Shown: piece by piece, positions 3,117-30,914 of the stretch | How positions within the stretch are numbered: the stretch's first letter is position 1 | How the letters are laid out: each line of letters begins with the position of its first letter | Assembly: GCA_044350425.1 (NCBI GenBank) | Contig: JBILHS010000031.1 | Coordinates: 13,637-45,636 of the forward strand | Direction: 5' to 3' | From: Saprospiraceae bacterium | Lineage (GTDB): Bacteria; Bacteroidota; Bacteroidia; Chitinophagales; Saprospiraceae | Length of the DNA: 32,000 nt | The notes under the pieces: model-generated | The model's input: the letters and a program-made list of their open reading frames with translations, nothing else | Database searches by the model: none | What the model was told of the DNA's origin: nothing | Position numbers and translations under genes: made by a program

Positions 3117-4190
3117 TCAGAGGTGTTGGTCTCCGGATTTTTGCTTTACCAGTGCAGTGACTTGTTTTACTTCTTGTTCCTTTGATTTCGGATATATGAG
3201 TAATGCATCCGGGGTATCCACAATGATATAGTCATGCAGGTCTTTTACCACAGCAATTTTCCCTTTAGGAATTCTTACCAGCGTATCATGGGTGTCCAAT
3301 GCAATGATATTGCCTTGTAAGGCATTCCCGTTTTCATCTTTTGGGTACTCTGCGTGTAGACTTGCCCAGGTTCCGAGATCACTCCAACCAAATTCGGAAG
3401 GCAATGTATAGACGTTGGACGCATTTTCCATGATGGCAAAGTCCACCGATATATTGGGTGTAGTCGGGTAGGCCAGGTCAATAAAGGCTTGCTCCTCCGG
3501 GGTGTTGTAAACATTATTTCCTTTTTCCAGAATAGAATAGATCTCTGGCGCCAGTGCTTTGTAGGCACGAAGAATCGTCTCGGCACGCCAGATGAAAATA
3601 CCGGCATTCCAAAGATATTCGCCGGATTCCACATATTCCACGGCCGTTGGCAAACTGGGTTTTTCTGCAAACCGAAGTACTTTTCGAATGTCGACGTCTG
3701 CCTCTTCTCCAAATTGGATGTAGCCATAACCTGTGTCCGGGCGAGAAGGCTGGATCCCCAGTGTAAGCAATGCGTCATGCTTCGCTGAAAAATCCAGCGC
3801 GGTCTGGATCTTTTCAAGAAAAGCCTGTTCTTTTAAAACAATATGGTCAGAAGGGGCAATCACAAAATTTGCCTCTGGATCCAAGGCTGCCAGTTTAAAC
3901 GCCGTCCAGGCTACACAAGGCGCTGTGTTATTGCGACTGGGCTCACAAAGGATCTGGTTGGCGGTGATTTCCGGGATTTGCTCCAGGATAAGGTCCTTGT
4001 AAGCTGCATTGGTCACAATAAAAATATGGCTAGCGGGACAAATGGGCAAAAAACGCTCGAAGGTCAGCCGCAACAGGCTTTTGCCCACCCCCAGCATATC
4101 CAGGAATTGTTTGGGCCGTGCCTCGCGACTGCCCGGCCAGAATCGGCTGCCGACACCGCCGGCCATGATGGCTACATAGGTATGATTCAT
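3117..4190 (-). CDS. manC: Mannose-1-phosphate guanylyltransferase (GDP-mannose pyrophosphorylase)
   Basis: N-terminal AIMAGGVGSRFWPGSREARPKQF nucleotidyltransferase signature with full-length similarity to the ManC/CpsB N-terminal domain. 357 aa, TGA stop. Confidence 0.9.
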   Translation of the reverse strand: MNHTYVAIMAGGVGSRFWPGSREARPKQFLDMLGVGKSLLRLTFERFLPICPASHIFIVTNAAYKDLILEQIPEITANQILCEPSRNNTAPCVAWTAFKLAALDPEANFVIAPSDHIVLKEQAFLEKIQTALDFSAKHDALLTLGIQPSRPDTGYGYIQFGEEADVDIRKVLRFAEKPSLPTAVEYVESGEYLWNAGIFIWRAETILRAYKALAPEIYSILEKGNNVYNTPEEQAFIDLAYPTTPNISVDFAIMENASNVYTLPSEFGWSDLGTWASLHAEYPKDENGNALQGNIIALDTHDTLVRIPKGKIAVVKDLHDYIIVDTPDALLIYPKSKEQEVKQVTALVKQKSGDQHL

Positions 4191-4196
4191 GACTTT

Positions 4197-4266
4197 GATG
4201 TATGATGTATGATGTATGAACTATGATGTATGATGTATGAACTATGATGTATGATCTATGATGTAT
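4197..4266. repeat. Ten contiguous heptamers GATGTAT (variants GAACTAT, GATCTAT) with 21-bp higher-order periodicity, filling the fcl-manC junction
   Basis: Units counted by hand from 4197 to 4266. On the minus (mRNA) strand it reads ATACATC and ends 6 nt before the manC ATG (4190). Confidence 0.95.
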
Positions 4267-4273
4267 GGGGTGG

Positions 4274-5206
4274 TCAGGGATTCAGTTGAGCTTTTACTTC
4301 CTCGTAAACGGATTTTATGCCGTCTTCCAGATTGATTTTAGCCTTCCAGCCGAGTCCGGTCAATTTACTGACGTCCATTAGTTTACGCGGTGTTCCATCC
4401 GGCTTACTGAGATCATGCTGGATGGTTCCAGTGTAACCTACAATACGCTGAACAAGTTTAGCCAGATCTAAAATAGACAGATCCTGTCCTGTTCCGATGT
4501 TTACGAATCCCGGTTCATTATAATGCTGCATCAGGTAAAAACACGCGTCGGCCAGATCATCTACATGTAGAAATTCGCGGAGCGGCGTGCCGGTACCCCA
4601 CAAGGTAACGAAGGGCGCATGGTTGAGTTTTGCTTCGTGGAATTTGCGCAGCATCGCCGGAAGCACATGACTATTCTCCGGATGGTAATTATCGTTGGGG
4701 CCATAGAGGTTGGTGGGCATCACACTGACAAAATTGCAACCATATTGGGCCCGGTAAGCGTCGCAAAGTTTGATGCCTGCGATTTTTGCGATCGCATAGG
4801 GTTCGTTGGTCGGTTCGAGTAACCCGGTGAGCAAAGCCTCCTCTTTTAAGGGTTGCGGTGCAAGTTTTGGATAGATGCAGGAAGAGCCCAGGAACATCAA
4901 TTTTTCTACCTCGTGTCGGTACGCGGATTCAATGACGTTGGCTTCGATCATTAAATTGTCGTACAAAAATTCAGCTCGGTAGGTATTGTTCGCGAGGATT
5001 CCGCCGACTTTGGCCGCGGCAAGAAAAACATGAACAGGTTTTTCACGACGGAAAAACTCGCTGACCTCCTGCTGATTGCGAAGGTCCAGCTTGCGGGAAT
5101 CAGCCAGAGCAAAATTGGTGAAACCTGCTGCCTGAAGTTTTCGAAGAATGGCAGATCCGACCATTCCACGGTGGCCTGCTATGTATATTTTATCGGTTAC
5201 ATTCAT
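4274..5206 (-). CDS. fcl: GDP-L-fucose synthase (GDP-4-keto-6-deoxy-D-mannose 3,5-epimerase/4-reductase)
   Basis: [19 protein letters not shown] Rossmann motif and collinear SDR-type sequence ending ...[12 protein letters not shown]. 310 aa. Confidence 0.92.
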
Positions 5207-9205: not shown

Positions 9206-9426
9206 AAATGTGGTCAATGTGTTAAATGTGGTCAATGTGTTAAATGTGGTCAATAAGTTAAATGTGGTCAATGTGTTTAATGTGGTCAATGTGATCAATG
9301 GATAAAAGCGGCCAATTTTACCTGGTCGAGCCCAAAACACATTGACCGCATTGACCACATTGACCACATTTAACTTATTGACCACATTTAACTTATTGAC
9401 CACATTTAACTTATTGACCACATTAA
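9206..9426. repeat. 221-bp inverted pair of tandem arrays filling the junction between the dehydrogenase and aminotransferase genes
   Basis: The left arm (9206-9301) is about five copies of the 18-mer AAATGTGGTCAATGTGTT. A spacer occupies 9302-9337. The right arm (9338-9426) consists of 9-mers CATTGACCA / CATTTAACT, the reverse complement of the left unit. Read directly. Confidence 0.95.
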
Positions 9427-11243: not shown

Positions 11244-11285
11244 GATGTATGAGGTATGATGTATGATGTATGATGTATGATGTGT
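11244..11285. repeat. Six heptamers GATGTAT (variants GAGGTAT, GATGTGT)
   Basis: Counted by hand. On the minus strand it reads ATACATC and ends 6 nt upstream of the NUDIX ATG. Confidence 0.95.
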
Positions 11286-11436
11286 TTTTGGGGTAGTTGG
11301 GGGCAAATTTGGGTAGCCTGTTTTTTGATCTGTATCAAACAACTATTTTTTTTCCAAAAAGATTCTCATCGGACTACTTTTGAGGCTCCTTGTGTGACCC
11401 AAGTCAGGCTTACAGTCCTAAAGCCAAGCCAGATTC

Positions 11437-11500
11437 CAACATCATACATCATACATCATACATCATACATCATAGTTCATACATCATACATCCCTACATC
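11437..11500. repeat. About nine heptamers ATACATC (variants CAACATC, ATAGTTC), the inverted partner of 11244-11285
   Basis: Counted by hand. It abuts the GTG start at 11501 with no gap. Confidence 0.95.
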
Positions 11501-15814: not shown

Positions 15815-16138
15815 TGCGGGAATAAATTGGTTGATAAGATGAAAGAAGTCAAATAGGGCGCAAAGGAAATGCCAGAGATTCGAATTTGCCGCGAAAGTGT
15901 CAGATATAAGTTCATTATTTTTGTAGTATTGGACGCGCTTCTATTTGCATATGCCCCTCAGCATAGCGCTTTTGTCTAAACTTCCTGTTTTCAAAGCACA
16001 AGGCGGTACTTTTGCCGTTAATAAAGACGGTCGCTCATTCCATGTGGGTTGCTGATTGTTTTTTAAAATTGATAACCGCTCTTGTCCAAGAAGCTCCAGG
16101 TAGGAAGCAATGGATGGAGCAAAAACTTTTTCACTGAC

Positions 16139-17845
16139 ATGATATTCAAAAAAAGGCTTCTCGTCGCTATCGCCTGTCTTCCGGGCATGCTTTTGTCGGC
16201 GCAAAGCAAAGCACCTGACAACTGGTTTAACCTAGATCCAACAGCGGATAAAGTGAACGGAACGGGTGGCGATGCGGCGATTCAATTGCTGAAAAGTAAA
16301 AGTAAAAAAAGCCAAACGGTCATCGTGGCTGTTCTGGACTCTGGAGTAGAGGTTGACCATGAGGACCTAAAGGATGTGATCTGGACCAATCCGGGTGAAA
16401 TTCCGGGTAACAAAAAGGATGATGACAACAATGGCTATGTGGATGACATCCATGGTTGGAACTTCCTCGCAGGCCCCGGTGGCAATGTAAACCACGAGAC
16501 CCTCGAGCTTACCCGCGAATACGCGCGACTAAAAAAGCGCTTCGATGGCACGGACCCGAAAAATCTTCATGGCGACGCTGCGGCTGAGTACAAGACCTGG
16601 ATGAAGGTCAAAGAAGATTTTGAGGCCCAGCGTGCTGAAGCGGTGAGTGGAATGGAAAATGCAACCAAACAACTCAAACCCATCGAAGATGCTTTCAATG
16701 GAGTTGAAAAAGCGCTAGCAGGCAAAGAGCTCAATGCTGACAATGTTGCAGCCATCAATGTCACCGGAAACGATGACTTGAAAAAGTCTGTGGAAATCAT
16801 CAAAGCAGTCATGGGGCAGGGACTGTCTTCAAGAAAAGATCTGGATGATGCTAAAAAAGAGGCTTCTGAGTTCTTCTACAACCAGGTGGAGTTTCAGCTC
16901 AACCCGGACTACAATGCCCGTGCTATGGTCGGTGATGATCCAACTGACCTTAAAAATCGTTTTTACGGCACCAATGAATACGAAGGCCCGGATGCTTTCC
17001 ACGGCACACACGTGGCGGGTATCATCGCTGCCAATCGCAACAACAACATTGGCATTCGCGGTGTGGCGGACAACGTGCGTATCATGACCGTGCGTTGTGT
17101 ACCAGACGGTGACGAACGTGACAAGGACGTAGCCAACGCGATCTACTATGCCGTAGACAATGGTGCCAGTGTGATTAATATGTCCTTTGGCAAATCTTAC
17201 AGCCCTGATAAGTGGTATGTAGACCAGGCCATGCGTTATGCTGCGGAACATGACGTTCTGCTCGTTCATGCTGCTGGCAACAGTTCTGCCAACAACGATG
17301 CAGAAGGTAATTTCCCCAATGACGAGCTGCAAAAGCCTGTCAAAAAGGGTCTTTTCGGCAAAGAAAAGCGCATTTATACCTGGATGGAGATCGGTGCACT
17401 CGGCTGGAAATCTGGTGATAAGCGCGTAGCCAGCTTCTCGAACTATGGTAAAAAGAATGTAGACCTGTTCTCACCTGGCGTACAGCTTCAATCTACCATC
17501 CCTGATGGTAAATATGGTCCGGCCAGCGGTACTTCCATGGCGAGCCCTGCAGCAGCAGGTGTAGCTGCATTGATCCGCTCCTACTATCCTGACTTGTCTG
17601 CCGTACAGGTAAAGCATATCATGGAGACCTCTGTAGTGAAGCAAGATGGCGAGGTTATCAAACCTGGCACTACCGAAAAAGTGAAATTTACGGAACTCTG
17701 TGTGAGCGGCGGAACAGTTAGTGCAACCAACGCAGTGGCTTTGGCAGAAACAACCAAAGCAGCTAAGAAGTCTAAAAAAGCGATCTGGCGTGAAGCTGGT
17801 CTGGGAAAACCTAAAAAGGTCCTGGGCAAAGAGCCACGTGCTTAA
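16139..17845 (+). CDS. S8-family (subtilisin-like) serine peptidase, secreted
   Basis: Catalytic triad contexts VAVLDSGVEVDHEDL, HGTHVAGIIAA and GTSMASPAAAGVAALI. The signal peptide MIFKKRLLVAIACLPGMLLSAQ starts at ATG 16139. The TTG at 16082 in the ORF track is less likely. Confidence 0.9.
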   Translation: MIFKKRLLVAIACLPGMLLSAQSKAPDNWFNLDPTADKVNGTGGDAAIQLLKSKSKKSQTVIVAVLDSGVEVDHEDLKDVIWTNPGEIPGNKKDDDNNGYVDDIHGWNFLAGPGGNVNHETLELTREYARLKKRFDGTDPKNLHGDAAAEYKTWMKVKEDFEAQRAEAVSGMENATKQLKPIEDAFNGVEKALAGKELNADNVAAINVTGNDDLKKSVEIIKAVMGQGLSSRKDLDDAKKEASEFFYNQVEFQLNPDYNARAMVGDDPTDLKNRFYGTNEYEGPDAFHGTHVAGIIAANRNNNIGIRGVADNVRIMTVRCVPDGDERDKDVANAIYYAVDNGASVINMSFGKSYSPDKWYVDQAMRYAAEHDVLLVHAAGNSSANNDAEGNFPNDELQKPVKKGLFGKEKRIYTWMEIGALGWKSGDKRVASFSNYGKKNVDLFSPGVQLQSTIPDGKYGPASGTSMASPAAAGVAALIRSYYPDLSAVQVKHIMETSVVKQDGEVIKPGTTEKVKFTELCVSGGTVSATNAVALAETTKAAKKSKKAIWREAGLGKPKKVLGKEPRA

Positions 17846-17875: not shown

Positions 17876-17924
17876 ATAGCGCCCTTTTGATCAGCTGATC
17901 AAAAGGGCGCTATTTTATTTTTTT
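17876..17924. terminator. Perfect 38-bp palindrome plus T-tract, terminating the S8 peptidase gene and possibly the convergent lipoprotein gene
   Basis: atagcgcccttttgatcag|ctgatcaaaagggcgctat (17876-17913); all 19 pairs were checked by hand. It is followed by tttatttttttat on the + strand and touches the minus-strand stop codon at 17915-17917. Confidence 0.75.
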
Positions 17925-18409
17925 ATCAACTCATTCAAAGGCGACTGTCGTTTCATTTTGATCGTTCGTTCGAAATTGGGTTTTTTCTGAACGGAGGTCC
18001 ACTCATCTTTACTGTTTTGGGTCCATTGAATGTTGTTCCAACCATCCCGAATGGGGTCAAGCTGAAAGGATTTTTTATCCAGCAAGACAGCCACCCATTC
18101 GCCATTGGGTCCCAGATAGAGATGGTTGTTCCTCCAATATACCCTGGAAAGATTGGTGCCAAAAGTGTCCTTTCCGTCAAATTGGTAAGAAACCACTTCC
18201 AGCGTGCTGTCTGTTGGGAAATGATAAGTCTGATAATAACCCGGGCCGGACACCTCACTTTTCCAGTTGCCCTCGATCCATCGGAGTTTTTGAAGATCTG
18301 ATTTTTTATAGATGGGTGGGTTTTGGGCATTGCCAGGCAATACAGGGGTTTCTTTGCAGGCAATGAGCATGCAAATGGAAAGCCCCAGGATCCAGAATTT
18401 TGTTGTCAC
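17915..18409 (-). CDS. Hypothetical lipoprotein
   Basis: From GTG 18409 the N-terminus reads MTTKFWILGLSICMLIAC with a lipobox LIAC. The TTG at 18439 is an alternative start. No recognisable domain. Confidence 0.55.
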   Translation of the reverse strand: MTTKFWILGLSICMLIACKETPVLPGNAQNPPIYKKSDLQKLRWIEGNWKSEVSGPGYYQTYHFPTDSTLEVVSYQFDGKDTFGTNLSRVYWRNNHLYLGPNGEWVAVLLDKKSFQLDPIRDGWNNIQWTQNSKDEWTSVQKKPNFERTIKMKRQSPLNELIKK

Positions 18410-18503
18410 AGGTGTAAAAGTTGAAGGATGAAAGTGCAAAGTTCTTAAAAGTCCGATTGCATTCTTTTAATTTGGCTACCAGATTTTTGAATGGTCAGCC
18501 AGA

Positions 18504-21582: not shown

Positions 21583-22062
21583 ATGCAACTCATCGGTGAA
21601 TATCCGGTGTCCCTTGACGACAAGGGCCGCTTGCGCTTACCAACCGCGCTGCTCCGCCAATTACCTGCTTTAACCGCAGGATCCAATGGCGACGGAGCTG
21701 CTTATGAATTTGTAGTAAACCGGGGGTTTGAGAAGTGTCTCACACTTTACCCCAAACCGGTCTGGGACGGCATCGCTGCCAAGTTGAGCCGTCTCAATAG
21801 TTTCAATGACCGGAACCGCGCCTTTGTACGCTCTTTTCACTACGGAGCGTATCCACTGACCACCGACAGCGCGGACAGAATCCTTTTGCAGAAGCCTTTG
21901 ATGGATTATGCGGGTATCACCAAGGATGCAGTACTGCTTGCTATGAACGGCAAGGTTGAAATCTGGTCGCCAGAGCAATATGCTTCCACCGCCGCCTTTG
22001 ATCCGAATGAATTTGCTGATTTGGCAAATGACGTGATGGGCGGGGAGAACGATGATGTATAA
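21583..22062 (+). CDS. mraZ: Transcriptional regulator MraZ
   Basis: MQLIGEYPVSLDDKGRLRLPTALLRQL with a second half-domain ...TTDSADRILLQKPL. 159 aa. The TAA at 22060-22062 lies inside the first heptamer array. Confidence 0.93.
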   Translation: MQLIGEYPVSLDDKGRLRLPTALLRQLPALTAGSNGDGAAYEFVVNRGFEKCLTLYPKPVWDGIAAKLSRLNSFNDRNRAFVRSFHYGAYPLTTDSADRILLQKPLMDYAGITKDAVLLAMNGKVEIWSPEQYASTAAFDPNEFADLANDVMGGENDDV

Positions 22063-22095
22063 GGTATGAAGTATGATGTATGAAGTATGATGTAT
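22054..22095. repeat. Six heptamers GATGTAT (variants AAGGTAT, GAAGTAT) overlapping the mraZ stop codon
   Basis: Counted by hand. Confidence 0.95.
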
Positions 22096-22143
22096 GAAAG
22101 GCTTAAGCTGAATGCGAGAGTGCATTTTCAAGCTTAGTTTTTC

Positions 22144-22199
22144 ACACATCATACTTCATACATCATACATCATACATCATACATCATATATCATACATA
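22144..22199. repeat. Eight heptamers ATACATC (variants ACACATC, ATACTTC, ATATATC, ATACATA), the inverted partner of 22054-22095
   Basis: Counted by hand. It ends 2 nt before the rsmH ATG at 22202. Confidence 0.95.
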
Positions 22200-22201
22200 A
22201 T

Positions 22202-23146
22202 ATGGTGTACCACGAGTCTGTCCTATTACACGAAAGCATTGATCTACTAGGCATTACGCCTGGTGGGGTTTATGTAGATGCGACGTTTGGCGGCGGCGGT
22301 CACTCCAAATTGATACTCGAAAAAATGGGCGAAAAAGGTCGCCTGTTTGCCTTCGATCAGGATGAGGATGCTAAGCGAAACACGGAACAGCAGGCGTTTT
22401 CAAGCCATTCTGGCTTTGTTTTCATTCCATCGAATTTCAGGCATTTGAAACGGCAATTACGTGCAGAAGGCGTAAGACCAGGCACTGTAAATGGAATCCT
22501 TGCAGATCTGGGTGTAAGCAGCCACCAGCTGGATACAGCAGAAAGGGGATTCTCTTATCGATTCGAAGCAGCACTCGATATGCGGATGAGTCGCCTGGAT
22601 GGGGAAACAGCTGCGGACATACTCAATACACGAAGTGCAGAAGAACTGCAGCGCATTTTTAGCGAACTTGGGGAGTTGAGAAACTCTAAAACGCTGGCAC
22701 ATGCAGTGATACAGGAGCGGGAACGAAAGCGTTTTCGAACCACAGGCGACCTGCTGGAATTGGCTACCAAGAATCTGATGGGAGAACGTATGCGCTACCT
22801 CTCACAGGTTTTTCAGGCCTTGCGCATGGAAGCTAATGATGAACTCGGGGCGCTGGAAGATTTTATGAAGGATGCTTTGGAAATGCTGGCGCCGGGTGGA
22901 AAACTGGCAGTGATCACCTTTCATTCGCTGGAAGATCGAATGGTGAAGAATTATATGAAAGCGGGCAATGTAGCGGGAGAGCCGGACCAGGATTTTTATG
23001 GCAATATCACAAAGCCCTGGAAACTGGTAACCAAAAAGCCTGTAGAAGCAAGCCAGGCAGAAACCAAGCAAAATGCCCGCTCCAGAAGTGCAAAGCTTCG
23101 GGTCGCCGCAAAAAATGTAACTAACGAACAATTTAAAACGAAATAA
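22202..23146 (+). CDS. rsmH: 16S rRNA (cytosine1402-N4)-methyltransferase
   Basis: MVYHESVLLHESIDLL...YVDATFGGGGHSK...ITFHSLEDRMVKN. ATG 22202 was chosen because the upstream part of the ORF-track entry is a translation of the repeat. Confidence 0.93.
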   Translation: MVYHESVLLHESIDLLGITPGGVYVDATFGGGGHSKLILEKMGEKGRLFAFDQDEDAKRNTEQQAFSSHSGFVFIPSNFRHLKRQLRAEGVRPGTVNGILADLGVSSHQLDTAERGFSYRFEAALDMRMSRLDGETAADILNTRSAEELQRIFSELGELRNSKTLAHAVIQERERKRFRTTGDLLELATKNLMGERMRYLSQVFQALRMEANDELGALEDFMKDALEMLAPGGKLAVITFHSLEDRMVKNYMKAGNVAGEPDQDFYGNITKPWKLVTKKPVEASQAETKQNARSRSAKLRVAAKNVTNEQFKTK

Positions 23147-23176: not shown

Positions 23177-23485
23177 ATGGCTAATAAGTTGCTTAATGCC
23201 CTTAACGTAAGTCGCCACACCACAGATCTGGTGTTTGGTAATTTTCAATTTCTGCTCTTTATAGGCGGATTGGGTATTCTGTACATCGCCAATGCACATT
23301 ACTCTGAAAAAGGGGTGCGGCGTATTCAGTCGTTGCAGAAGGAAATAAAAGAGTTGAAATGGGAATATACCTCGATCAAAAGTGAAACGATGTATAAGAG
23401 TATGCAGAGTCAGATTGATGAGAGTCTGGAGCCTGTAGGGCTTGATTTGGAGAACAAAGGTCCTAAAGTGATAAGTGTTAAGTGA
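23177..23485 (+). CDS. ftsL: Bacteroidota-type cell-division protein FtsL
   Basis: 102 aa, with a single TM helix (FQFLLFIGGLGILYIANAHY) followed by a coiled coil (IQSLQKEIKELKWEY). It occupies the conserved position between rsmH and ftsI. The TGA lies inside the repeat array. Confidence 0.8.
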   Translation: MANKLLNALNVSRHTTDLVFGNFQFLLFIGGLGILYIANAHYSEKGVRRIQSLQKEIKELKWEYTSIKSETMYKSMQSQIDESLEPVGLDLENKGPKVISVK

Positions 23486-23498
23486 TAAGTGTTAAGTG
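23464..23498. repeat. Five heptamers of the type (A/T)TAAGTG, with a 14-bp higher-order unit ATAAGTGTTAAGTG, overlapping the ftsL stop
   Basis: Read directly: aaagtg ataagtg ttaagtg ataagtg ttaagtg. Confidence 0.9.
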
Positions 23499-23524
23499 GT
23501 GCACATGAATCAAGCTGCAAATGC

Positions 23525-23926
23525 ATGGAAAATCAACGACCTAATAAAGTGGTACTAAGAGAAAAGAGTTTTTTACGGGCCATTAGAATTGTCAGGCTCC
23601 GTAAGCATTTGCGCGAACAAAAAAAGGAGTATGAAATATCGAGGTAGTTGTTCAAGAGTGGTACAAATCCAGGCACAATGGTTAAGGAGTCAGAGTATGC
23701 GCAGTCGGGAGCTGATTTTATAAATAAGCTAAAAGTCGCCCAAAAGGAATTGAATGAAACCAGATATTGGATTGAACTGCTTTTTGCTACTGACTACCTC
23801 TCAGAATCTGAAAAAGTGTCCATTCTAAATGATGTGGATGAAGTAATGAGATTAACGACCAGTTCAATTAAAACTCGAAAAGCCAATCTCGAATCAAGTA
23901 AAAAGCACAGCTCTAAAACCACTTAA
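23525..23926 (+). pseudogene. Four-helix-bundle protein gene (23S rRNA intervening-sequence protein / Avd family, PF05635-like) with an in-frame TAG at 23645-23647
   Basis: Hand translation from ATG 23525 gives MENQRPNKVVLREKSFLRAIRIVRLRKHLREQKKEYEISR*LFKSGTNPGTMVKESEYAQSGADFINKLKVAQKELNETRYWIELL... It is collinear with the family pattern ...EKSF.F...I..L...L...KEY.LSKQLLRSGTSIGAN..EA...QS..DF..KL.IA.KE..ET.YWL.LL. The stop falls where the family has Gln (CAG to TAG). Confidence 0.75.
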
Positions 23927-23947
23927 TACTAACCACTTAACACTAAC
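23920..23947. repeat. Four heptamers CACTTAA / TACTAAC / CACTTAA / CACTAAC, the imperfect inverted partner of 23464-23498
   Basis: Read directly. It contains the TAA stop of the four-helix-bundle ORF and ends 3 nt before the ftsI GTG (23951). Confidence 0.9.
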
Positions 23948-26478: not shown

Positions 26479-28035
26479 ATGCTTTTAACCTATCTCCTTC
26501 AAAACCTGCATGTGCTCGAAGCACAAGGCAATACAGACATCGAAATCGGACAGATCCGTTTCGATAGTCGTGCTGTGCAGTCTGGAGATGTGTTTGTGGC
26601 GGTACGTGGTGCAGCGGTAGATGGGCATCAGTTCATTGACAGGGCGATTGAAAATGGGGCGGTTGCGGTTGTTTGCGAACGTCCAAGTGATTTTTTGGTT
26701 GAAAGGGACCATACTGATAGTCTCACTTCAAGTGAGACTATCAGTATGGTCCCTTTCAACCAAAAAATCACTTGGATCAAAGTCGCCGATGCTACAGAAG
26801 CACTCGGACAAATAGCTTCCAACTTTTACGGCAATCCTTCTGCAGCCTTAACCCTGATCGGCATCACCGGAACCAATGGAAAAACAACCACGGCTACCTT
26901 GCTCTGGCAACTTTTTACGGCATTGGGCTACAAATGCGGTCTGATCGGAACCGTCGAAAACAGGGTAGGGGAAGAAGTATTGGTGAGTACCCACACTACA
27001 CCAGATGCGGTTCGGGTTCACGAACTGATCCGCAAAATGGCTGATGCTGGTTGTAGTCATGTGTTTATGGAAGTCAGCAGCCATGCGGTGCATCAACGTA
27101 GAATTGCAGGGGCGACGTTTGCCGGCGGGGTTTTTACCAACCTAACCCATGATCACCTCGACTATCATAAAACCTTTGCAGAATACCGGGATACCAAAAA
27201 GAAGTTCTTTGACGATTTGCCAAAAACGGCCTTTGCGCTGACCAATGCCGATGATAAAAACGGGGCGATCATGTTGCAAAACACCCGGGCTGACAAGAAA
27301 TCCTATGGTTTGAAAAAGCCGGCTGATTTCAAAGCAAAGATCATAGAAAATAGCCTGGAGGGGCTGCATTTGGAGTTGGATGGGGCGCAAATTCACGCCC
27401 GGATGATCGGTGAGTTCAATGCTTACAACCTGACTGCTGCCTATGGCGTGGCTATGTTGCTTGCTCAGAACCAGACCTCGGAGGTTTTAAAAACCTCCGA
27501 GGTCTACCAAACGACCCTCCTGACCGCACTCAGCAATCTCTCCGGCGCAGAAGGCCGGTTCGACTATATCAACCACTCGTCAAAACCCGGTTGTATCGGA
27601 ATCGTAGACTATGCCCACACCCCGGATGCGCTTGAAAAAGTACTGGAGACCATCGCCAAACTGAAAAAGAAAAACTCCCGCATTATCACGGTTACCGGTG
27701 CTGGCGGAGACCGGGACAAGACCAAACGACCCATCATGGCTCAGGTTTGTGCCAGATTAAGTGACCAGCTAGTTTTGACCAGCGACAACCCGAGGACGGA
27801 AGACCCGGCTGCAATTCTGAAAGATATGGAAGCCGGTTTGGATGCAGCAGGACTAAAGAAAACACTCACCATCCAGGACCGTGAACAAGCCATAAAAACA
27901 GCTATCCGGCTGGCCGGCCCGAACGATGTGATCCTGGTAGCTGGAAAAGGCCATGAGAAGTATCAGGATATACAAGGCGTAAAATATCCTTTTGATGACA
28001 AACAGATGTTGTCAAAGTTTTTTGAGGAAAAATGA
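26479..28035 (+). CDS. murE: UDP-N-acetylmuramoyl-L-alanyl-D-glutamate--2,6-diaminopimelate ligase, carrying two in-frame palindromic segments
   Basis: GITGTNGKTTTA P-loop, ...DYAHTPDALEKVL... and ...LTSDNPRTEDP... are canonical MurE blocks. 518 aa. Confidence 0.93.
   Translation: MLLTYLLQNLHVLEAQGNTDIEIGQIRFDSRAVQSGDVFVAVRGAAVDGHQFIDRAIENGAVAVVCERPSDFLVERDHTDSLTSSETISMVPFNQKITWIKVADATEALGQIASNFYGNPSAALTLIGITGTNGKTTTATLLWQLFTALGYKCGLIGTVENRVGEEVLVSTHTTPDAVRVHELIRKMADAGCSHVFMEVSSHAVHQRRIAGATFAGGVFTNLTHDHLDYHKTFAEYRDTKKKFFDDLPKTAFALTNADDKNGAIMLQNTRADKKSYGLKKPADFKAKIIENSLEGLHLELDGAQIHARMIGEFNAYNLTAAYGVAMLLAQNQTSEVLKTSEVYQTTLLTALSNLSGAEGRFDYINHSSKPGCIGIVDYAHTPDALEKVLETIAKLKKKNSRIITVTGAGGDRDKTKRPIMAQVCARLSDQLVLTSDNPRTEDPAAILKDMEAGLDAAGLKKTLTIQDREQAIKTAIRLAGPNDVILVAGKGHEKYQDIQGVKYPFDDKQMLSKFFEEK
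26682..26776. repeat. Perfect 95-bp palindrome (47-bp arms, central C at 26729) inside murE
   Basis: All 47 base pairs were verified by hand. The core GATAGTCTCACTTCAAGTGAGACTATC lies at 26716-26742. Confidence 0.97.
27473..27505. repeat. Perfect 33-bp palindrome (16-bp arms, central A at 27489) inside murE
   Basis: agacctcggaggtttt a aaaacctccgaggtct, verified by hand. It encodes (Q)TSEVLKTSEV(Y). Confidence 0.95.
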
Positions 28036-28136: not shown

Positions 28137-28169
28137 GGTTTTGGGGCGATGAAATATCGCCCCAAAACC
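28137..28169 (+). other. Perfect 14-bp stem with a 5-nt loop in the 232-bp murE-mraY spacer (possible attenuator or processing site)
   Basis: ggttttggggcgat gaaat atcgccccaaaacc, read directly. There is no clear T-tract after it, so it is not called a terminator. Confidence 0.5.
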
Positions 28170-29531: not shown

Positions 29532-30914
29532 ATGAAAAAGCGAATCGTCATATTAGGCTCCGGAGAATCCGGTACAGGAGCGGCCCTACTGGCCCGACAC
29601 CTGGGCTATGACGTATTCGTATCGGATAAAGGCGCGATCAAAGCACAATATCAGGCAGAATTGAACGAAGCAGGTATTGCCTGGGAAGAAAACCAGCATA
29701 CGCTGGATCAGATATTGAATGCTCAGGAGATTATAAAAAGTCCGGGTATTCCTGAAAAAAGTGAAGTGATGAAAGCCGTGCGGGAAAAAGGTATCAACGT
29801 GATCGGTGAAATTGAATTTGGATATCGTCATGCCGGCAAGTGCCAGATCGTTGCTATTACCGGCTCCAATGGTAAAACGACGACTACCGAGTTGACATAT
29901 CACCTGATGAAAACCGCCGGATTGGATGTCCGTAAAGGTGGAAATGTGGGCAATTCATTTGCCCGAATGGCGCTGGAAGATCTGAAATCGAAGAGAACAA
30001 AAGCCGCTGAACGGATTTTTGTTTTGGAGGTTTCAAGCTTTCAATTGGATGATATTCAGCAGTTTAGACCTAAAATAGCGATGCTGTTAAATATTACTCC
30101 GGACCATTTGGACCGCTACGATTATAAATTGGAAAACTATGCGGCGTCTAAGTTTCGGGTGACTATGAATCAAGGCCGCGGCGATAAGTTCATTTACAAT
30201 GGGTTTGATCCGATCCTGAAAGTTCATCTTGATAGTCTCACTTCAAGTGAGACTATCAAGATGAACTTTCAGGATCGGATCAAACCCAAACAAATCGCCA
30301 TTCGAAAAGGCTTTTTCAAAAACGGCCAGATCAAAGTAGGAAAAGATTTCTACGACATGACAAAAAGTGCCCTTCGGGGCCCGCACAATATGTTCAATGC
30401 AGTGTGTGCCATTCGGGCATCCTTGTTGTTGGGTGCAGCTGCGGACAAAATTCAGGAAGGTTTGAACACATTTACACCACCCCCTCACCGCTTGGAAAAG
30501 GTGGCTGAGATCGGTGGCGTAACGTGGATCAACGATTCGAAAGCAACCAATGTAGACTCAGTTTTCTACGCCCTGCAGGCGATGGATGTGCCGACGGTGT
30601 GGATCGTTGGCGGCCAGGACAAGGGGAACGATTATTCGCCACTCTTGAAATTGGTGAAAAAAAAGGTGAAGGCCATCGTTTGCATGGGTGTAGATAATTC
30701 AAAGATAATCAGTGTGTTCGGCGGAATTAAGAAGCCAATGGTAGAAACAGGAAGTGCCCAGGAAGCTGTAAAGGCAGCGGCAAATTTTGCCAAATCCGGA
30801 GATGTCATATTGCTCAGCCCGGCTTGTGCGAGTTTTGATTTGTTCAAAAATTATGAGGATCGAGGAGCGCAGTTTCGGGAAGCTGTTTTACAAATCACCC
30901 ACTCACCAAAATAA
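29532..30914 (+). CDS. murD: UDP-N-acetylmuramoylalanine--D-glutamate ligase, carrying one in-frame palindromic segment
   Basis: KKRIVILGSGESGTGAALLA Rossmann-like start, the AITGSNGKTTTT P-loop and ...SPACASFDLFKNYEDRG. 460 aa. Confidence 0.93.
   Translation: MKKRIVILGSGESGTGAALLARHLGYDVFVSDKGAIKAQYQAELNEAGIAWEENQHTLDQILNAQEIIKSPGIPEKSEVMKAVREKGINVIGEIEFGYRHAGKCQIVAITGSNGKTTTTELTYHLMKTAGLDVRKGGNVGNSFARMALEDLKSKRTKAAERIFVLEVSSFQLDDIQQFRPKIAMLLNITPDHLDRYDYKLENYAASKFRVTMNQGRGDKFIYNGFDPILKVHLDSLTSSETIKMNFQDRIKPKQIAIRKGFFKNGQIKVGKDFYDMTKSALRGPHNMFNAVCAIRASLLLGAAADKIQEGLNTFTPPPHRLEKVAEIGGVTWINDSKATNVDSVFYALQAMDVPTVWIVGGQDKGNDYSPLLKLVKKKVKAIVCMGVDNSKIISVFGGIKKPMVETGSAQEAVKAAANFAKSGDVILLSPACASFDLFKNYEDRGAQFREAVLQITHSPK
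30200..30288. repeat. Perfect 89-bp palindrome (44-bp arms, central C at 30244) inside murD
   Basis: All 44 pairs were verified by hand. The same core GATAGTCTCACTTCAAGTGAGACTATC lies at 30231-30257. Confidence 0.97.

Follow-up and report, generated by a model that had tools for sequence, protein, structure and literature searches.

The murD gene (UDP-N-acetylmuramoylalanine--D-glutamate ligase) in a 32,000-nucleotide (nt) stretch of a Saprospiraceae genome assembly (contig JBILHS010000031.1 of GCA_044350425.1; the whole stretch is referred to as the window) carries a perfect 89-bp palindrome in frame with its coding sequence (Table 1). The assignment to Saprospiraceae was based on named relatives with 83-85% identity. 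The palindrome is real, and it was probably formed when a repetitive extragenic palindromic (REP) hairpin entered a permissive surface loop of the protein in frame and was later enlarged by copying of its own arms.

The murD palindrome and its recovery from separate assemblies

The two arms of the palindrome (30200-30243 and 30245-30288) were 100% complementary around the central base C30244; arms of 44 nt would pair in this way by chance with a probability of about 4^-44 at any given position. The host open reading frame (ORF) matched the Pfam families MurD_N, Mur_ligase_M and Mur_ligase_C, and solved MurD structures are clear homologues of its product. C30244 constitutes the second position of a TCA codon; since the centre falls on codon position 2, the arms are codon-aligned, and the right-arm codons are the reverse complements of the left-arm codons. 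The perfect symmetry, the codon alignment and the encoded peptide GFDPILKVHLDSLTSSETIKMNFQDRIKP, all of which had been described in an initial annotation of this DNA, were reproduced, and the conceptual translation of the insert includes the peptides VHLDSLTSSETIK and MNFQDR. A minus-strand ORF (30243-30488) does end in the mirrored peptide GFDPILKVHLDSLT, as also described; it is an automatic outcome of the palindromic symmetry and as such does not point to a gene. When the window was scanned for perfect hairpins (stem of at least 10, loop of at most 7), 6 were found, relative to 0-1 in shuffled versions of the window. Single-strand folding of 30200-30288 gave -79.1 kcal/mol as RNA (z = -19.8) and -52.3 kcal/mol as DNA, both about 20 standard deviations beyond shuffled sequences. 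A scan of the window against Rfam at gathering thresholds matched no structured-RNA family.

Table 1. Window coordinates of the murD and murE palindromes and of their parts
Feature	Position	Strand	Remarks
murD (UDP-N-acetylmuramoylalanine--D-glutamate ligase)	29532..30914	+	Intact 460-amino-acid ORF hosting the palindrome
Perfect 89-bp palindrome	30200..30288		44 + C30244 + 44; encodes residues 224-252
GGGTTT, outer end of left arm	30201..30206	+	Native G-F codons
Native murD GAT CCG ATC CTG AAA (D-P-I-L-K)	30207..30221	+	Putative template
GTTCAT, arm positions 17-22, left	30222..30227		Pairs with 30261-30266; also in sister lineage L040/L041
REP core (putative), 16 + 1 + 16 nt	30228..30260		CTTGATAGTCTCACTT C AAGTGAGACTATCAAG
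ATGAAC, arm positions 17-22, right	30261..30266		Also in sister lineage
Window-specific 15 nt, TTTCAGGATCGGATC (F-Q-D-R-I)	30267..30281	+	Identical to 30207-30221 when reverse-complemented
AAACCC (K-P codons), native right flank	30282..30287	+	Complementary to GGGTTT 30201-30206; putative return microhomology
Second perfect palindrome, in murE	26682..26776		47 + C26729 + 47; in frame in murE ORF 26479-28035
murE outer truncated half-site CCAAGTGAT	26683-26691		Pairs with ATCACTTGG 26767-26775 (native I-T-W codons)
murE inner REP core (putative)	26713-26745		23-nt spacer on each side between core and outer half-site
Third in-frame palindrome, in murE	27473..27505		16+1+16, AGACCTCGGAGGTTTT A AAAACCTCCGAGGTCT = QTSEVLKTSEV; different hairpin family

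The palindrome could in principle be a product of assembly or sequencing, for example a chimeric or hairpin artefact, and the data for it were all short-read metagenome assemblies. The initial annotation had pointed to absence from raw reads or from other isolates as a sign of such an artefact. An exact look-up of the MurD protein, with assembled contigs as the evidence, recovered the identical palindrome on 6 contigs from 6 different Joint Genome Institute (JGI) metagenome samples, representing two haplotypes (L037-L039 and L063-L065; collected loci are given as L numbers) that are distinguished by a single-nucleotide polymorphism (SNP) at 29980. Two of these contigs, L037 and L063, extend across murE, and the murE palindrome was unchanged in both. 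A one-off assembly artefact is very unlikely because six separate assemblies carry the identical palindrome; in addition, murD continues in frame on both sides of it, a diverged sister lineage holds a shorter version of the same structure, and the hairpin family to which its centre belongs also occurs in long-read ('tig') assemblies. On this evidence the artefact explanation was considered extremely improbable.

The central core and a RAYT-like partner

Only the central portion of the murD palindrome (30228-30260) was common to a dispersed family. Exact-pattern scans for this core recovered 36 loci in genome assemblies and 18 in metagenome contigs, the genome matches coming from metagenome-assembled genomes (MAGs) of Saprospiraceae, Lewinellaceae, Prolixibacteraceae, Paludibacteraceae and Mariniphaga, some of them long-read. 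In agreement with the short (20-40 bp) palindromes, dispersed in many copies, that characterise RAYT-associated REP elements (RAYT, REP-associated tyrosine transposase), the 59 distinct copies obtained across at least 10 MAGs and metagenomes had a 16+1+16 consensus, which stopped about 16 nt from the centre. Stem position 15 was variable in sequence and paired in 93% of copies, and arm positions 17-20 were paired in 46-59% of copies (about 25% by chance) with no sequence consensus. Arm lengths peaked at 16-17 nt; perfect arms of 37 nt were found in L053 and L057, and the 44- and 47-nt arms in the window were the longest. The best-sampled MAG held at least 11 core loci by exact-match search. 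About 29 of 38 family copies were intergenic, often in arrays or accompanied by extra half-sites, while about one quarter of copies lay inside long ORFs, nearly always in the frame DSLT(S/L)SETI; the murD core reads (L)DSLTSSETI(K). The copies in the window were not extragenic, being located in frame inside murD and murE. The consensus has GATAG inside both arms (GGTAG in the variants L019, L029 and L034), and no single-sided head of the GT(A/G)G or CGTC type was seen; the repeats at the RAYT homolog in L066 (see below) are headed by GTAG. A near-match to the core at 1336-1348 was rejected, as it was not a palindromic copy, and a literature search on the core motif and on Saprospiraceae palindromic repeats returned nothing specific.

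Elsewhere, the core was read in frame (DSLTxSETI) in ORFs of L003, L005/L049/L051, L008/L017, L023, L027, L036, L044 (two tandem core copies) and L055. Names given to such ORFs by eye, without family searches, were UvrD-like helicase, kynureninase-like, FAD oxidoreductase, AroB-like protein, methyltransferase, IcmF-like mutase, beta-helix protein and amidohydrolase-like protein. The 37-nt arms were centred on 725 in L053 and on 14281 in L057, the latter with a nested second half-site; L043 carried regularly spaced hairpin arrays (3927-4938) around a RAYT-like gene, and L056 had triple tandem left half-sites (4062-4185). The long arms, arrays and half-sites of these four loci are consistent with repeated re-synthesis of arms.

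A 201-amino-acid ORF situated between two hairpin copies in L014 matched the NCBIfam model 'REP-associated tyrosine transposase' with E = 1e-12, under the curated cutoff. By tblastn against the collected loci, which had been fetched only for their hairpin content, homologs of this ORF were found in 5 more loci (L059, L053, L043, L010 and L030). In these 6 loci the RAYT-like gene (about 200 amino acids) ends 18-110 nt from a hairpin, and in 4 of the 6 hairpins or arrays occur on both sides. All 22 aligned members of the clade matched NCBIfam REP_Tyr_transpos (NF047646; best E = 2.3e-16), two homologs carried PF01797, and the HUH motif and catalytic tyrosine were invariant, as in the HUH/Y1 (IS200/IS605-like) transposases that include RAYTs. 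A single PDB structure was matched by the RAYT-like protein, Escherichia coli TnpA-REP (4er8), with the alignment covering the motif of the catalytic tyrosine. REP/RAYT systems are defined by the position of a rayt gene between inverted copies of its own repeat (PMC2817692), and such flanking by inverted copies was found in genomes other than that of the window. Since the hairpin abuts or flanks a RAYT-like gene at 6 other loci, the central core is very likely a REP element. A pair of hairpins 745 bp apart in L004 was rejected as enclosing a RAYT gene, the 177-amino-acid ORF between them being unrelated. In L068, two REP hairpins (1414-1446 and 1460-1492) lie inside a RAYT-like ORF (1201-1845), apparently in frame.

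Outer arms, murE palindromes and the host loop

In an alignment of 120 MurD orthologs around the FIYN motif, a comparison that had been proposed in the initial annotation, FIYNGFDP(I/V)(L/V) was conserved throughout and followed by a hypervariable loop; D226 was invariant and P227 nearly so. The insert-free ortholog L069 reads IYNGFDPILK-ENMVETKA-KKVVIRKG, with GGT TTC GAT CCC ATT TTG AAA at the DNA level, and the left outer arm in the window (30201-30221) reads GGG TTT GAT CCG ATC CTG AAA. Because GFDPILK is found in the empty-site ortholog as in all others, the left outer arm can be assigned to murD itself as native sequence. No direct target duplication was visible at the murD site in comparison with L069. 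A sister lineage (L040/L041; 92% nucleotide identity) has the same hairpin with 22-nt arms. Following ...AAGATGAAC, the sister has CCG AAACCC AAACAA, and the window has TTTCAGGATCGGATC AAACCC AAACAA. The 15 nt specific to the window match the native GATCCGATCCTGAAA exactly when the latter is reverse-complemented. They stand in place of CCG, which makes the gene 12 nt (4 codons) longer on balance, and the reading frame is therefore kept. The 21-mer TTTCAGGATCGGATCAAACCC had one occurrence in the sister, namely the opposite-strand native template, and two in the window population. AAACCC was also present in L040, and AAACCT in the outgroup L061, which bears a different hairpin; because this flank is the same in the outgroup despite the different hairpin, AAACC(C/T)AAACAA is native.

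This pattern has the elements expected of template switching: the new segment is an in-register reverse complement of the neighbouring flank at an existing inverted repeat; L040/L041 represent a state with the template and without the segment, which is ancestral by parsimony only; and AAACCC/GGGTTT provides microhomology at the return point. Manual enumeration of the four possible remainders showed that CCG cannot be obtained from the window sequence by removing 12 contiguous nt, so that the short-arm form is more simply taken as ancestral, and the 88 paired bases without a mismatch suggest a recent event. Extension of the murD arms by fold-back template switching, from short to long, is thus regarded as likely. 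In the ortholog P0014 (L062), which has a different core variant, the arms are 31 nt long and contain two mismatched positions, and the native CCGATCGTT recurs within the right arm in reverse-complemented form, as AACGATCGG. Because both the core variant and the inner arm sequence differ from those in the window, arm extension appears to have recurred independently in this ortholog. When the flanks of L008 and L017 were aligned by eye, one copy seemed to have 18 additional nt, longer arms and a displaced half-site; a gain of this type would account for half-site arrays elsewhere in the family.

Consistent with the initial annotation, according to which murD is the second essential Mur ligase within a short distance to carry such an element, murE contains a real and related palindrome 3.5 kb away, and the murD palindrome is accordingly no one-off. 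The two long palindromes do not, however, represent a common 89-bp unit: they have in common only TGATAGTCTCACTT-C-AAGTGAGACTATCA (the central 29-33 bp), their outer arms are unrelated, and about 28 nt of each murD arm consist of native sequence (left) and its inverted duplicate (right). In the outgroup L042, the murE palindrome is CCAAGTGATAGTCTCGCTT-C-AAGTGAGACTATCACTTGG with 19-nt arms, in which ATCACTTGG corresponds to the native I-T-W codons and CCAAGTGAT to their mirror image. Relative to L042, the window has 27 additional nt in each murE arm, in perfect mirror symmetry, resulting in a nested structure with the same layout as the 37-nt-arm copy of L057. The TGAT repeats of the murE palindrome are internal to the arms. 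No donor of the 27-nt segments was found in the window (at most 3 mismatches) or in the collected loci (blastn-short). In the sister L041, part of the right-arm segment was kept, 36 nt were lost on the left and the stem has 5 mismatches. The perfect symmetry of the murE palindrome in the window would fit whole-arm fold-back copying. A third in-frame palindrome (27473-27505), missing from the initial annotation, sits in a second hypervariable murE loop. Its orthologous copies were perfect in L041 and L042, with a G/C swap affecting both arms at synonymous sites in L041. Other hairpin-like peptides (RLSKSSRL and RFSKPTRF) were seen in orthologs of this second murE loop.

The AlphaFold (AF2) model of the MurD protein had a mean predicted local distance difference test (pLDDT) score of 91.4. 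The stretch of lowest confidence was at about residues 239-250. Scores under 50 were confined to 240-245, and the lesser dips around 361-370 and 431-440 did not fall below 70. In the model, the left arm encodes a native helix (227-238), and the added part forms an excursion before a strand (253-257). In a MurD tree built without the loop residues, basal clades had a short loop, and relatives at a distance of at most 0.15 showed at least three types of hairpin peptide in a patchy distribution, which points to repeated insertion or replacement. The RAYT homolog of L068 is flanked by ATTCAGGCGGTGACTTCAAGTCACCGCCTGAAT arrays, which in frame give QAVTSSHRL, the 'type B' MurD loop peptide, and further REP variants were present in L067 and L066. 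In related species, REPs that belong to other RAYT families thus occupy the same MurD loop, and selection would filter insertions to tolerant loops and to a polar, stop-free frame. The murD loops of L042 and L061 and the repeats at 1048-1941 of L068 have different stems and a common 9-nt tip, ACTTCAAGT (T-S-S in frame), as in ...CTCACTTCAAGTGAG... and ...GGTGACTTCAAGTCACC...; this tip could reflect common descent, loop recognition by the RAYT or a coding constraint.

Other repeats and insertions were also present in the window. A perfect 38-bp palindrome (19+19; ATAGCGCCCTTTTGATCAG|CTGATCAAAAGGGCGCTAT) at 17876-17913 lies within the 69-bp gap between convergent ORFs (16082-17845 on the plus strand and 17915-18439 on the minus strand), and is possibly a bidirectional terminator or another type of REP. 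A 14+5+14 hairpin (GGTTTTGGGGCGAT GAAAT ATCGCCCCAAAACC) was located at 28137-28169 in the murE-mraY spacer. Intergenic inverted arrays of short tandem units were found at 9206-9424, 11244-11500, 22052-22202 and 4196-4267 (for example, AAATGTGGTCAATGTGTT x5 against its own reverse complement x5, or GATGTAT x6 against ACATCAT x8); these form long imperfect hairpins and represent a repeat class other than the REP core. The small 23S_rRNA_IVP-like (PF05635) gene between ftsL and ftsI has inverted tandem arrays on either side (AAGTGATAAGTGTT x2.4 at 23466-23498 and AACCACTTAACACT x2.2 at 23917-23947), and the region 23466-23947 looks like an inserted cassette. The related division and cell wall (dcw) clusters of L042 and L061 have small PDDEXK_3 (PF13366) genes inserted at other positions.

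Alternative explanations and comparison with known systems

The sequence of events that probably led to the murD palindrome would have begun with mobilisation of the core as single-stranded hairpin DNA by a RAYT-like HUH/Y1 transposase, a link suggested by association. A REP copy would then have entered the loop after helix 227-238 in the only frame giving the polar, stop-free DSLTSSETI, with selection presumably removing insertions elsewhere in murD or in other frames. Subsequently, a nascent or resected 3' end carrying the right arm may have snapped back on the left arm, so that the D-P-I-L-K codons were copied as their 15-nt reverse complement; the return to the original template would have taken place at the 6-nt AAACCC/GGGTTT microhomology, with CCG skipped and a gain of 12 nt. 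An earlier round of fold-back copying probably made arm positions 17-22, and the same process could underlie the murE symmetry, the compensatory double changes in stems, the P0014 extension and the displaced half-sites and arrays. Most probably the added peptide is carried along as a tolerated passenger that has no required function, and the balance leans towards the insert being neutral rather than a selected structure.

Several observations weigh against this account. A single sister lineage provides the parsimony argument for growth of the arms from short to long, and template switching is deduced from the pattern of the sequences. The RAYT-like proteins score 48 bits relative to the NCBIfam curated cutoff of 80, a Pfam search of the L014 RAYT-like ORF gave no match, no RAYT gene is present in the 32-kb window, and the window itself has only 2 copies of the core. 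The history of murE is only partly explained because its 27-nt arm segments are without an identifiable source, and the perfect conservation of the 27473-27505 palindrome across lineages that have diverged by 10-18% could reflect selection on structure.

Such selection is the basis of one alternative, in which the hairpins serve as RNA or DNA signals of the dcw operon (RNase III cleavage or other processing, mRNA stability, translation pausing) with the arms maintained by selection. The very stable fold (-79 kcal/mol, z = -19.8), the fact that two adjacent genes, both essential, contain three hairpins in frame, the perfect state of the second murE hairpin in three lineages together with its compensatory synonymous swap, and the hairpins held in the same loops by most close relatives would all agree with it. 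Basal orthologs lack any insert, however, arm length differs two-fold between lineages of 92% identity, the long murE hairpin has decayed in L041 (5 mismatches and deletions), and hairpin families interchange freely at the same site; no Rfam family was matched, copies of the core lie mostly between genes and are found next to a transposase-like gene, which they flank, and compensatory changes arise from template switching alone (PMC8794818). Selection for structure was therefore judged improbable as the explanation of the palindrome. With respect to the order of events, the reverse polarity would make arms of about 44 nt ancestral and derive the 22-nt form of the sister by partial deletion, fold-back copying having occurred earlier. 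Palindromes are prone to deletion, deletions have indeed affected the murE hairpin of L041, AAACCC/GGGTTT complementarity exists in both lineages, and the right arm of L062 also has GATCGG. This order appeared quite improbable, given that the enumeration above yielded no single contiguous 12-nt deletion that turns TTTCAGGATCGGATC into CCG that 88 mismatch-free paired bases would be unlikely after about 8% divergence unless the arms had been homogenised, and that the extension in L062, with its different core variant and inner arm sequence, is a separate one.

The palindromes might also have been inserted whole, as a long mobile element of 89 bp (95 bp in murE) resembling a Rickettsia palindromic element (RPE), and the perfection of both, their reading frame, their common core and their spacing of 3.5 kb could be taken in this way. 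This is very improbable: the outer arms of murD and murE are unrelated, that on the left in murD consists of conserved native codons present in the empty-site ortholog, neither outer arm was found elsewhere in any collected sequence, and the family consensus ends at 16 nt. A MITE (miniature inverted-repeat transposable element, with terminal inverted repeats and a target-site duplication, 50-500 bp) was rejected, the conserved unit being about 33 bp with no target duplication at murD, as were a protelomerase or hairpin-telomere site and a transposon excision footprint, since the core is conserved, occurs in multiple copies and has a RAYT as its partner. A broader view, in which intragenic Saprospiraceae REPs are not passive, was treated as doubtful. 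According to it, REPs may be continually homogenised and lengthened by template switching between their arms, which would turn native codons into reverse-complement mirror codons and give recurrent new loop peptides in essential enzymes; the three MurD/MurE loops may be filled repeatedly by REPs of different RAYT families through targeted, hairpin-directed insertion or replacement as opposed to tolerance; or else the dcw operon may have taken the hairpins into use as signals for processing or pausing.

The murD palindrome, explained as a REP with arms copied from its host, would provide a natural example of a selfish hairpin and template switching together writing in-frame protein sequence into essential cell-wall enzymes, with an intermediate state of arm growth preserved in the sister lineage. 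In this lineage, essential genes tolerate perfect palindromes about 90 bp long. REP-RAYT systems and intragenic REPs would be extended beyond Proteobacteria to Saprospiraceae and related Bacteroidota, in which several REP families use the same insertion-tolerant loops. Loops of this kind inflate apparent protein divergence and yield spurious antisense ORFs, and the cruciform-prone sequence may complicate cloning, assembly and annotation.

In-frame intragenic REPs that add 20-30 amino acids, often to repair proteins, have been catalogued in several phyla, including RPE-4 and RPE-6 of Rickettsia, and constitute a minority of mostly intergenic repeats (Di Nocera et al. 2013, PMC3733652). The present family resembles these codogenic REPs (PMC3733652) in consisting of short palindromes that are mostly intergenic, with a minority in genes and in frame, in adding about 10-30 amino acids without inactivating the host protein, and in occurring as singles, dimers and clusters; DNA-repair hosts may be a further parallel, the core being present in the UvrD-like helicase (named by eye) of L003. 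It differs from them (PMC3733652) in being a new sequence family of Saprospiraceae, Lewinellaceae and Prolixibacteraceae, in having (G/A)TAG within both stem arms, apparently as opposed to a single-sided GTAG or CGTC head, and in that sister species fill the same MurD/MurE loops with different REP families; perfect palindromes of 89-95 bp that are mostly host-derived, as in the window, were not reported in PMC3733652. With the REP/REPIN-RAYT systems (Nunvar 2010, PMC2817692; Bertels & Rainey 2011, PMC3116915) it shares a hairpin of about 33 bp with a covarying stem and an HUH/Y1 transposase-like gene between inverted repeats, sometimes arrays. Unlike in those systems, the RAYT-like clade is divergent (sub-threshold in NCBIfam, no Pfam match), the hosts belong to the phylum Bacteroidota, the copies within murD and murE are intragenic, and the number of copies seen is modest, with at least 11 loci recovered by exact matching from the MAG that was sampled best.

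The footprint at murD corresponds to that of the Ripley/Lovett model of template switching (PMC7202029, PMC3820800), for which evolutionary footprints have been described (PMC8794818, PMC8604942), and switching that creates or perfects hairpins and changes coding sequence has been documented (PMC8794818, PMC8604942). As in quasipalindrome template switches, the new segment is an exact reverse complement of its neighbour, seeded by an inverted repeat and with a microhomology return, and coding novelty and compensatory stem changes are possible in one event. Quasipalindrome switches are usually corrections of a few nt, or affect rRNA or yeast genes, in contrast to the REP-seeded 15-nt extension of an essential bacterial gene seen here; unlike usual switches, the process also appears to repeat.

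Rickettsia palindromic elements (RPE-1 and others) were reportedly described by Ogata et al. in 2000. These elements are the classic case of palindromic selfish DNA in genes (summarised in PMC10969869). The hairpins in the window are similar to RPE-1 in being palindromic selfish DNA in frame in housekeeping genes at fold-compatible positions. RPE-1 units (about 100-150 bp) are conserved over their whole length, whereas only about 33 bp are conserved here, the rest being copied from the host; a conserved unit of that size was not found, the outer arms being unrelated and the consensus ending at 16 nt. This kind of selfish DNA is thus known already and does not represent a new system. What is new is the REP family together with the divergent clade of RAYT-like proteins that accompanies it, the existence of hot-spot loops for several families in two adjacent Mur ligases, both essential, and the extent to which host codons have been recruited by a REP into perfect palindromes of about 90 bp, with the intermediate preserved.

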